Shown here one piece after another: positions 33,113 through 33,612 of a stretch of DNA of 40,128 nt; the stretch's first letter is position 1, and the number at the start of each line of letters is the position of its first letter. The translations under genes and the position numbers were made by a program. The stretch is from Escherichia phage mEp506. A model generated the notes under the pieces. That model worked only from the letters and a program-made list of their open reading frames with translations, was not told the origin of the DNA and did no database searches. The DNA lies in the sequence record PV340542. The stretch is one strand, 5' to 3'.

Positions 33113-33132
33113 GCTAAGTTAAGGAGATGTGT

Positions 33133-33282
33133 ATGTCTTTTGAGTCACGAGTAGAAAAAACTGAAAATGAAACATCTGAAGTTAATGAAACGGTCCCGCA
33201 TGAGACCGTAGAGTACGATGCTTCAATGACATTAGGCGTCAATAAGCTTCATATTTTTGACGATGTCTTGAATTTGTGGTGA
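33133..33282 (+). CDS. small acidic hypothetical protein (49 aa)
   Basis: ORF MSFESRVEKTENETSEVNETVPHETVEYDASMTLGVNKLHIFDDVLNLW with AAGGAG RBS; 3' end overlaps the convergent minus-strand ORF; speculative. Confidence 0.3.
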   Translation: MSFESRVEKTENETSEVNETVPHETVEYDASMTLGVNKLHIFDDVLNLW

Positions 33283-33447
33283 GTTTGTCTTTGATAGGAT
33301 TTCAATAACTTGTTGCCTTGTATCTACTGGCAATGCTGCTGTTAATACCATTGTAACTTGTCTTAGAGCCACAATTTCTAAAGCGATTTCTCTAGGAATA
33401 TTTTCGTCAAGAGTAAATCTAAAATCCACGAACTTTTCTTCGATCAT
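33232..33447 (-). CDS. hypothetical protein (71 aa) in the I-J intergenic insertion
   Basis: Minus-strand ORF MIEEKFVDFRFTLDENIPREIALEIVALRQVTMVLTAALPV... with GGAG RBS; AT-rich region absent from lambda. Confidence 0.4.
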   Translation of the reverse strand: MIEEKFVDFRFTLDENIPREIALEIVALRQVTMVLTAALPVDTRQQVIEILSKTNSPQIQDIVKNMKLIDA

Positions 33448-33579
33448 CTTATTACTCCGTTTTAACCGGGTACTTCAGCCATCCCTCGGTCAGTTAACGC
33501 CAGCGGCCTACCACTGGCGGGCTGAGCTTACACATTAACCAGGGATTCCTGTTACCAACAGCCTGATATTTAAACAGTA

Positions 33580-33601
33580 GCCACCTTCGGGTGGTTTTTT
33601 T
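33580..33601 (+). terminator. rho-independent terminator immediately upstream of J (near-copy of the one at 32471)
   Basis: GCCACC-ttcg-GGTGG followed by TTTTTTT. Confidence 0.5.
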
Positions 33602-33612
33602 ATGGGCGCAAT

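Follow-up and report, generated by a model that had tools for sequence, protein, structure and literature searches.

In lambda the tail genes I and J are separated by 60 nt, while in Escherichia phage mEp506, an HK97-like lambdoid phage/prophage (Hendrixvirinae), gene I ends at position 33112 and gene J starts at 33613, which leaves a gap of 500 nt. The question raised by this locus is what the additional DNA is and what two small, oppositely oriented genes could be doing in the middle of a late operon. An earlier note on the same DNA, made from the sequence alone, had seen here about 500 bp of AT-rich DNA which lambda lacks, carrying two convergent ORFs that overlap at their 3' ends, and had proposed mutual antisense regulation or a small toxin/antitoxin-like pair. 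We analyzed the whole stretch of 40,128 nucleotides (sequence record PV340542; one strand, 5' to 3'), which is called the window in this text, and all positions are given in its coordinates. Our reading, which we consider probable, is that the DNA inserted between I and J represents a moron cassette with two genes, of the type of genes 22/23 of HK97 and 22/23 (srb) of HK022. Morons of the HK97/HK022 type were reportedly described by Juhala et al. in 2000.

The insertion itself, its AT-richness and its absence from lambda stand as they were first described, and HK75 lacks it too; its length has to be corrected. In lambda and in phages of the HK75 type there is little between I and J beyond a hairpin and a run of T, and since the hairpin-terminator at the right end of the mEp506 gap (33579-33601) is common to phages free of the insert, the added DNA amounts to about 466 bp (33113-33578) and not to 500. 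Extra DNA and a deviating base composition, both used in recognizing morons, are found here: the I-J gap is about 50 nt in HK75, HK106, mEp235 and others, the flanks of the insert are 98-99% identical to those of HK106, HK140, mEpX2, mEp235 and HK75, and the GC content is 0.37-0.38 inside the insert versus about 0.55 in I and J. Morons are further described as possessing their own promoter and terminator and as being expressed from repressed prophages (PMC3594210). The picture in mEp506 is mixed, with a clear plus-strand terminator, a conserved -10 candidate and leader, a weak -35 and a reverse gene that lacks a clear terminator of its own. As a side observation on the neighboring genes, K of mEp506 is 100% identical to K of HK97 except for one missing base, and both K and the tape measure gene appear frameshifted; the prophage may therefore be defective.

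Both ORFs are present as the earlier note had them, one of 49 aa on the plus strand and one of 71 aa on the minus strand, each preceded by a ribosome binding site (Table 1), and their convergent overlap, which had been put at about 50 bp, measures 51 bp. The forward ORF has 49 aa from ATG 33133 and would have 51 aa if begun at ATG 33127. When the insert was shuffled 5000 times, 41% of the shuffles held a plus-strand ORF of at least 49 aa, 6.4% a minus-strand ORF of 71 aa or more, and 3% held both. Because 41% of the shuffles match it, the length of the forward ORF is unremarkable by itself, and by length alone the reverse ORF is the only unusual one. Both proteins recur: the exact 49-aa sequence is found on 287 public contigs and the exact 71-aa sequence on 302, with close copies of the latter in E. 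coli. Conservation is not limited to one of the two frames: both are kept in Kosakonia-type prophages, with 63-65% amino acid identity, and in SPN3UB-type relatives, there in a different slot. Related cassettes likewise show an overlap, which measures 4-52 nt.

Table 1. Features of the I-J insert of mEp506 and its right border, in window coordinates.
Feature	Position	Strand	Basis or comment
Forward small ORF, 49 aa, acidic (pI 4.3)	33133-33282	+	Shortened, divergent member of the MTLEQRVEALE... family
Shine-Dalgarno AAGGAG of the forward ORF	33121-33126	+	Sequence; 6 nt before ATG 33133
3'-3' overlap of both ORFs, 51 bp	33232-33282		ORF coordinates
Reverse cargo gene, 71 aa, HK022 gp23 Srb / phrog_6806 family	33232-33447	-	Profile matches and alignments
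Shine-Dalgarno GGAGT of the reverse gene	33454-33458	-	Sequence
Weak hairpin with a 6-bp stem and U-rich sequence behind it; sole candidate terminator of the reverse transcript	33190-33209	-	Suggested by the sequence
Conserved non-coding module (leader, promoter, terminator)	33475-33601		At least 107 copies in IMG/VR, with unrelated cargo; also in HK97, HK022, ES18, SPN3UB and mEp043
Predicted 5' leader of the reverse mRNA	33448-33525	-	Fold; outer stem 33520-33525 with 33475-33480 encloses hairpin 33498-33519
Leader hairpin IR1, CGCCAGYGG-loop-CCRCTGGCG	33498-33519	-	Covariation
Predicted -10 hexamer TAATGT; start predicted at about 33524 +/- 2	33532-33537	-	Conservation, position-weight scan
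Candidate -35 TTGGTA, 15-nt spacer (weak assignment)	33553-33558	-	Scan
Inverted repeat CCAGGG...(A/C)CCTG across the promoter spacer; may be an operator	33539-33565		Alignment
Intrinsic terminator (hairpin + T7) just before J; right end of the module	33579-33601	+	Scan; also in insert-free phages

What is conserved at this locus is non-coding, because the coding parts of the four versions compared at the I-J position cannot be aligned while the roughly 100-125 bp from the start of the reverse gene to J are 84-95% identical. The module of about 125 bp is 95% identical to its counterpart in HK97 (over about 100 bp and the terminator) and 84% identical to that in HK022. It lies directly upstream of a reverse gene and directly before the next forward late gene. 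Within it, the most consistent promoter call of a position-weight scan is a hexamer of the form TAnnnT, which occurs as TAATGT, TATGGT, TAAAGT, TATGTT or TAAGGT and in every variant ends 7 nt before an invariant CAGCCCG. Since the -35 element is poor, this promoter is referred to as a predicted one. Other promoter and operator types were considered by inspection and set aside: the consensus sequences of sigma-54, sigma-32 and sigma-E promoters do not fit, and a possible LexA box in the module reads CTG-N9-CAG, which is off by one.

The transcript starting at the predicted promoter would carry a structured leader, which folds with -30 kcal/mol (z-score -2.2) and in which a second hairpin covers the ribosome binding site in part. 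Variation in the first hairpin was followed in 78 distinct sequences, which had been collected with an 18-mer that fixed most of one hairpin arm. One base pair appears as U-G in 48, C-G in 16 and U-A in 10 of these sequences, and another as A-U in 68, G-U in 5 and G-C in 3. In minus-strand RNA each variant still pairs, by wobble or by compensation, while on the plus strand C.A mismatches would result, and RNAalifold finds the hairpin on the minus strand only (-6.9 versus -1.0 on the plus strand). This indicates that the hairpin acts as RNA, forming the 5' end of the reverse gene's message, and is not a DNA operator or a part of a plus-strand small RNA. Stem-loops at the very 5' end are known to stabilize mRNAs in E. 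coli. A scan of positions 32000-34200 against Rfam at E <= 5 gave no match in 33448-33601; a match to fstAT over the start of J is due to chance, with 19.6 bits against a threshold of 72.

The same module was found in several late-operon slots. Apart from mEp506, the I-J slot is occupied in HK97, HK022, an E. coli prophage whose cargo has 210 aa and, in a more diverged form, Kosakonia. Between M and L it is present in ES18 (genes 24/25) and SPN3UB (0032/0033), between H and M in an E. coli H6 prophage, there with a pair resembling HK97 22/23, and between Rz and terminase in mEp043, mEp213 and E. coli 730V1. Homology between the carriers ends just past TTTTTTATGG of the terminator. A census of IMG/VR with an 18-mer of the module gave at least 121 matches on at least 120 contigs. 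Flanking module sequence is shared by 107 of the 121 listed matches, and the other 14, either chance hits or very diverged copies, were left out. Scanning genome contigs with the same GC-rich 18-mer returned mostly chance matches in genomes of high GC content and so yielded no host range for the module. Among the listed module copies 106 of 107 possess a reverse ORF, and in 95 of these 106 the distance between its start and the 18-mer is 56-61 nt. The cargo is diverse: at least 27 families that BLAST does not link to each other, most of them 65-100 aa long, one of 154 aa and one of 210 aa, with no assigned function among the families checked. A conserved left end, consisting of the GCCGAAAGGC hairpin, a ribosome binding site and the MTLEQRVEALE start, accompanies the module in about a quarter of the listed copies.

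The reverse gene of mEp506 lies directly downstream of the promoter/leader module, as srb does in HK022, and its product is, judged from profiles, distantly related to HK022 Srb and belongs to the same family, phrog_6806. The 71-aa protein matches the phrog_6806 profile with an E-value of 1.6e-6 and HK022 Srb with 3.9e-8, over the same profile positions, and these two proteins and SPN3UB_0033, from the M-L slot of a Salmonella phage, can be aligned from end to end. Identity between the mEp506 protein and HK022 Srb is only about 23%. Default BLASTP of the 71-aa protein gave no alignment with either HK022 Srb or HK97 gp23, and the kinship to Srb is seen through profiles only; with composition correction off, BLASTP aligned it to HK022 Srb with E = 7e-5. 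Profile searches with the Srb family recovered all three subfamilies; clustering at 90% identity gave 42 clusters, and 55 representatives were found at 50%. The family is about 70-75 aa long throughout, and members found are with few exceptions stand-alone proteins of 68-83 aa. Enterobacteriaceae are the source wherever one is named, and no member carries a functional assignment. In the open literature we found nothing on the function of HK022 srb, nor on a 'reverse moron'. Homologues of 72 aa with 63-69% amino acid identity in Kosakonia-type prophages also lie between I and J and also face a small forward ORF. The 71-aa protein (pI 4.7, GRAVY 0.14) is without a hydrophobic stretch and is predicted by modelling to be a soluble three-helix bundle. 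A terminator scan detected no canonical terminator downstream of the reverse gene and did not pick up the weak hairpin listed in Table 1.

The forward ORF belongs to a family that can be recognized by its beginning. Proteins starting with MTLEQRVEALE, encoded after the conserved GCCGAAAGGC hairpin and a GGAG, are found in SPN3UB and in 30 of 119 listed IMG/VR cassettes, in which the ORF stays open. In codons 2-12 of 17 distinct sequences of the family, variation is distributed over the three codon positions as 18/14/46, a pattern of selection on protein which indicates that the family is translated. For the mEp506 ORF itself, its ribosome binding site, the open frame in relatives and the third-position bias of the family speak in its favor; pN/pS is about 0.4 for the ORF between Kosakonia variants. 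Beyond the first 11-45 residues or so, the forward proteins diverge, and their tails enter the following reverse gene by 4-52 nt. Two types of forward ORF resemble pieces of tail proteins: one matches Pfam Phage_Tail_Tip, a motif of J, with 5.7e-6 (26.6 bits against a threshold of 22), and another reproduces, with 38-40% identity, the C-terminal 77 aa of the tape measure protein, whose gene lies directly before it. The mEp506 ORF lacks 22 residues that its relatives keep, and this deletion takes out the J-like motif; its N-terminus and its overlapped C-terminus match the Kosakonia version. The remaining 49-aa protein is acidic, has a GRAVY of -0.53 and no hydrophobic stretch, gave no match in a Pfam search, and its AF2 model shows no fold (pLDDT 52). 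One forward family is paired with at least nine unrelated reverse cargo families and the forward types are themselves mosaic, which indicates that the two genes are shuffled independently and are not a co-evolving cognate pair.

From this anatomy a way of working can be proposed for the cassette. Its right half would be a portable expression module with a predicted promoter of the sigma-70 type (-10 TAATGT, read from 33537 to 33532); along the minus strand it consists, in order, of the back of the terminator hairpin, the promoter, a structured 5' leader of about 75 nt beginning with a stem-loop, the ribosome binding site and the cargo. Because the reverse gene would have its own promoter and is oriented against a late operon that is silent in the lysogen, its expression in the repressed prophage is expected, and its product would be an accessory protein of lysogenic conversion, probably directed against other phages. 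The forward gene would share the Q-antiterminated late transcript of I and J, since it has a strong ribosome binding site and only about 20 nt separate it from I, which leaves no room for a promoter. Given the convergent arrangement with its 3' overlap, late transcription should run antisense through the reverse gene and its promoter and would lower reverse expression in lytic growth, in the manner of a 'noncontiguous operon'. In the lysogen the plus-strand terminator before J may in turn keep unmodified rightward transcription out of J. The mutual antisense regulation proposed earlier is thus plausible by analogy, the reverse gene being antisense inside a Q-dependent late operon as in the experimentally demonstrated phi80 taiEcA/atiEcA precedent (PMC11364771). 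Several points speak against the moron-cassette reading: the poor -35 with its 15-nt spacer, the lack of a canonical terminator behind the reverse gene, a forward ORF that is short, has lost 22 residues and is matched in length by 41% of the shuffles, and the apparent frameshifts in K and the tape measure gene.

What the two proteins do is a separate matter, and here several readings compete. They may form a pair for defence and self-protection similar to Tai/Ati and Tab/anti-Tab, in which the reverse protein, produced in the lysogen, would block the virion (tail) assembly of a superinfecting phage, and the forward late protein would neutralize it, possibly by mimicking the target, and thereby allow the prophage to build its own tails. 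We regard such a pair in mEp506 as possible, though on balance unlikely. A reverse gene placed inside a late operon and adjoined by a forward late gene fits the layout, although the overlap in phi80 is 5'-5' and here it is 3'-3', and there is neither sequence similarity to TaiEcA/AtiEcA nor a copy of the module in phi80. Tab is a moron protein with a late antidote and hits the C-terminus of the tape measure, TaiEcA hits the C-terminal part of J, and exactly such pieces, the J motif or the tape measure C-terminus, are carried by relatives of the forward ORF; the 49-aa ORF of mEp506, however, is without the J-like motif, and earlier recombination with neighboring tail genes could have left these pieces behind as relics. 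The rapid exchange of at least 27 cargo families is what would be expected of genes engaged in an arms race. On the other side, forward and reverse types are shuffled, with at least nine cargo families for one forward family, which argues against cognate neutralization. Turnover of cargo and tail-protein mimicry in some forward ORFs make a defence/counter-defence role attractive for cassettes of this kind, whereas for the mEp506 pair partner shuffling and the loss of the motif argue against it.

A second reading, to which we attach rather little probability, holds that the reverse gene alone works and that the 49-aa ORF is a decaying remnant of the forward gene seen in other cassettes, whose frame would still be open through chance and because it overlaps the reverse gene. 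An ORF of this length is frequent in the shuffles, as described above, but the AAGGAG is ideally spaced from the start codon, and the frame is open in all variants, the indel included, which is in frame. The deletion of 22 aa takes out the conserved core, and what is shared with the Kosakonia version is restricted to residues 1-8 and the C-terminal portion inside the overlap; against this, pN/pS between the Kosakonia variants is well below one and the N-terminus of the family shows a strong third-position bias. Divergence is about five times faster in the forward region (19 changes per 162 nt) than in the reverse gene (5 per 201 nt), and the low confidence of the AF2 model is likewise in accordance with decay.

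Two further readings survive less well. A small RNA encoded on the plus strand by the conserved 125 bp and ending at the terminator at 33579-33601 would account for a conserved non-coding sequence that ends in a strong intrinsic terminator, but it is very improbable given that the hairpin variants form G.U pairs in minus-strand RNA, where the plus strand would have C.A mismatches, with the RNAalifold energies to match, that the reverse ORF keeps its fixed distance from the module in 95 of the 106 listed copies, that the module has no match in Rfam and that no conserved plus-strand promoter is evident. A classical toxin-antitoxin pair of type I or II, which two small neighboring genes with overlapping transcripts on a mobile element, jointly conserved in relatives, might bring to mind, has next to no probability in our view: searches of both proteins against Pfam, NCBIfam and PADLOC gave no match to a toxin or antitoxin family, fold searches gave no informative match, the genes are convergent and do not form a co-directional autoregulated operon, the partners are freely exchanged among cassettes (at least nine cargo families), and the proteins, with pI values of 4.3 and 4.7, are both acidic, soluble and not hydrophobic, so that with GRAVY values of -0.53 and 0.14 and no membrane segment neither fits a type I toxin. 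The toxin/antitoxin-like pair of the earlier note is for these reasons unlikely.

Returning to the moron cassette, the insert of mEp506 is in itself mostly ordinary: the moron slot known best from HK97-like phages here holds a new allele, which is not a new kind of element and in all likelihood not a toxin-antitoxin system. The wider pattern deserves to be followed: a portable module, a conserved left end, dozens of small cargo genes and many late-operon slots. Within the late operons of phages, one short module marks more than 100 reverse small genes, from about 27 families without relation to each other, and can serve as a cheap sequence handle for accessory genes expressed from prophages, candidates for anti-phage or host-modifying functions, and for their late neighbors. 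Having conserved ends on both sides, the cassette is also a testable case of how morons may move, and its antisense placement in a late operon could switch a gene between lysogeny and lytic growth. Going further, one could suppose a large, modular plug-in platform, common to lambdoid phages of enterobacteria, whose conserved ends allow unrelated small genes to be swapped between late-operon slots by homologous recombination, with the pairs consisting of inhibitors of virion (tail) assembly in the lysogen and late antidotes that mimic the target, either the tape measure C-terminus or the tail-tip motif of J. This full scenario is a speculation that we hold to be doubtful; if it were true, the Srb family would be a new class of small anti-phage protein.

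Among known systems, the closest are those of HK97 and HK022. Genes 22 ('moron product', plus strand) and 23 ('reverse moron product', minus strand) of HK97 (AF069529) occupy the same I-J slot, with the same convergent arrangement and an annotated terminator before J, but their coding sequences are unrelated to those of the mEp506 pair and they overlap by 123 bp versus 51 bp. HK022 (AF069308), with genes 22 (plus strand) and 23 srb (minus strand), shares with mEp506 the slot, the layout and the module (84%); its gp23 Srb is collinear with the 71-aa protein, while its gp22 is unrelated to the forward ORF. Another tail-operon moron, gp15 of HK97, is expressed from the prophage and causes superinfection exclusion, as reported for Cumby et al. 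2012 in PMC3594210. It is an inner-membrane protein in another slot, whereas the mEp506 proteins are soluble.

More distant systems resemble the mEp506 pair in their arrangement. In phi80 the reverse gene taiEcA (204 aa) is constitutive in the lysogen and its expression drops under Q, and the forward gene atiEcA provides a late antidote (He et al. 2024, PMC11364771). As in mEp506, a reverse gene interrupts a Q-dependent late operon and a small forward late gene adjoins it, but the phi80 pair is situated in the Rz-terminase region and overlaps 5'-5', while that of mEp506 lies between I and J and overlaps 3'-3'. BLASTP of TaiEcA and AtiEcA against all cargo and forward proteins gave no match at E <= 1. 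Two candidate links were rejected: phi80 does not carry the module, and the cargo of 210 aa in E. coli MSB1_9D proved to be different from Tai. Tab of Pseudomonas phage JBD26, according to Patel et al. 2024 (PMC10884400), is a late-operon moron protein of 83 aa, constitutively produced from the prophage and countered by a late antidote. Tab and anti-Tab differ from the mEp506 pair in host and in phage group. The resemblance of the mEp506 cassette to Tai/Ati, and probably that to Tab/anti-Tab, is one of layout and not of descent, and it is with the moron pairs of HK97 and HK022 that its slot and its module are shared.

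The variable genes of these cassettes are bounded by conserved sequence on both sides, by the module on the right and by a conserved left end, which is common to many cassettes (among them those of the compared sequences L100, L109 and L115) and lies 25 nt before the forward ATG. Some of the forward ORFs themselves contain pieces of tail proteins. On the IMG/VR contig L072 (5519-6163) the forward ORF of the cassette is 121 aa long, begins with MALEKRVEALE, and its C-terminus copies the final 77 residues of the tape measure protein (40% identity), whose gene is situated just upstream. 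The J tail-tip motif (Pfam PF09327) is present in other forward ORFs. These pieces could be target mimics or relics of recombination.

A GC-rich hairpin with a T-run and TTATGG directly before J is also found in insert-free phages, including lambda and HK75, so that the module's terminator end may have belonged to the slot ancestrally, or may be a remnant of a cassette since lost. Two module copies were observed on one viral contig (L025, at 2306 and 4358), and elsewhere an IS3-family OrfA adjoins one copy.

Features of the window and of the compared sequences
Feature	Location	Strand	Sequence or basis
Conserved left end, in order	before and into forward ORF		GCCGAAAGGC (GNRA-loop hairpin), GGAGA, ATG ACT TTA GAA CAA CGN GTT GAR
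74-aa YebO-like membrane protein gene and terminator	window 32230-32488	forward	Pfam YebO, 1.8e-12
Terminator after YebO-like gene	window 32469-32488		CCACC-TWCG-GGTGG, T-run, then ATGGG
Promoter-like site, inside ORF overlap	window 33226-33255	+	ATGACA-18-CATATT, consensus scan
Inverted repeat, between predicted -35 and -10 of reverse promoter	window 33539-33565		CCAGGG-N-CCCTG
Pre-J hairpin and T-run, insert-free	lambda (L258) 1245-1306		
Pre-J hairpin and T-run, insert-free	HK75 (L003) 1563-1616		

The stems of the inverted repeat in the predicted reverse promoter are conserved across copies and its centre is variable; the repeat could be an operator, and no candidate regulator for it was found. 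If the promoter-like site in the ORF overlap is active, its transcript would run antisense through the reverse gene as far as the pre-J terminator.

Two tail genes of the window are apparently split. K (31473-32182) matches K of HK97 at 100% identity across 632 nt, save for a single base that is absent near 31772. This deletion breaks it into two overlapping ORFs; either it is a sequencing artefact or the prophage is defective. The tape measure gene (27096-30022) likewise appears to be divided into two ORFs, 27096..29213 and 29201..30022, in different frames.

A second moron, in forward orientation, occupies the K-I gap of the window, and its terminator is near-identical to the I-J terminator. 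The YebO-like protein which it encodes resembles gp20 of HK022. Among the reverse cargo, a 154-aa family (at least eight copies) has a DTGA motif resembling that of retropepsin-type aspartic proteases, and the left-end hairpin of the cassettes is the same as that found at HK97 gene 22.
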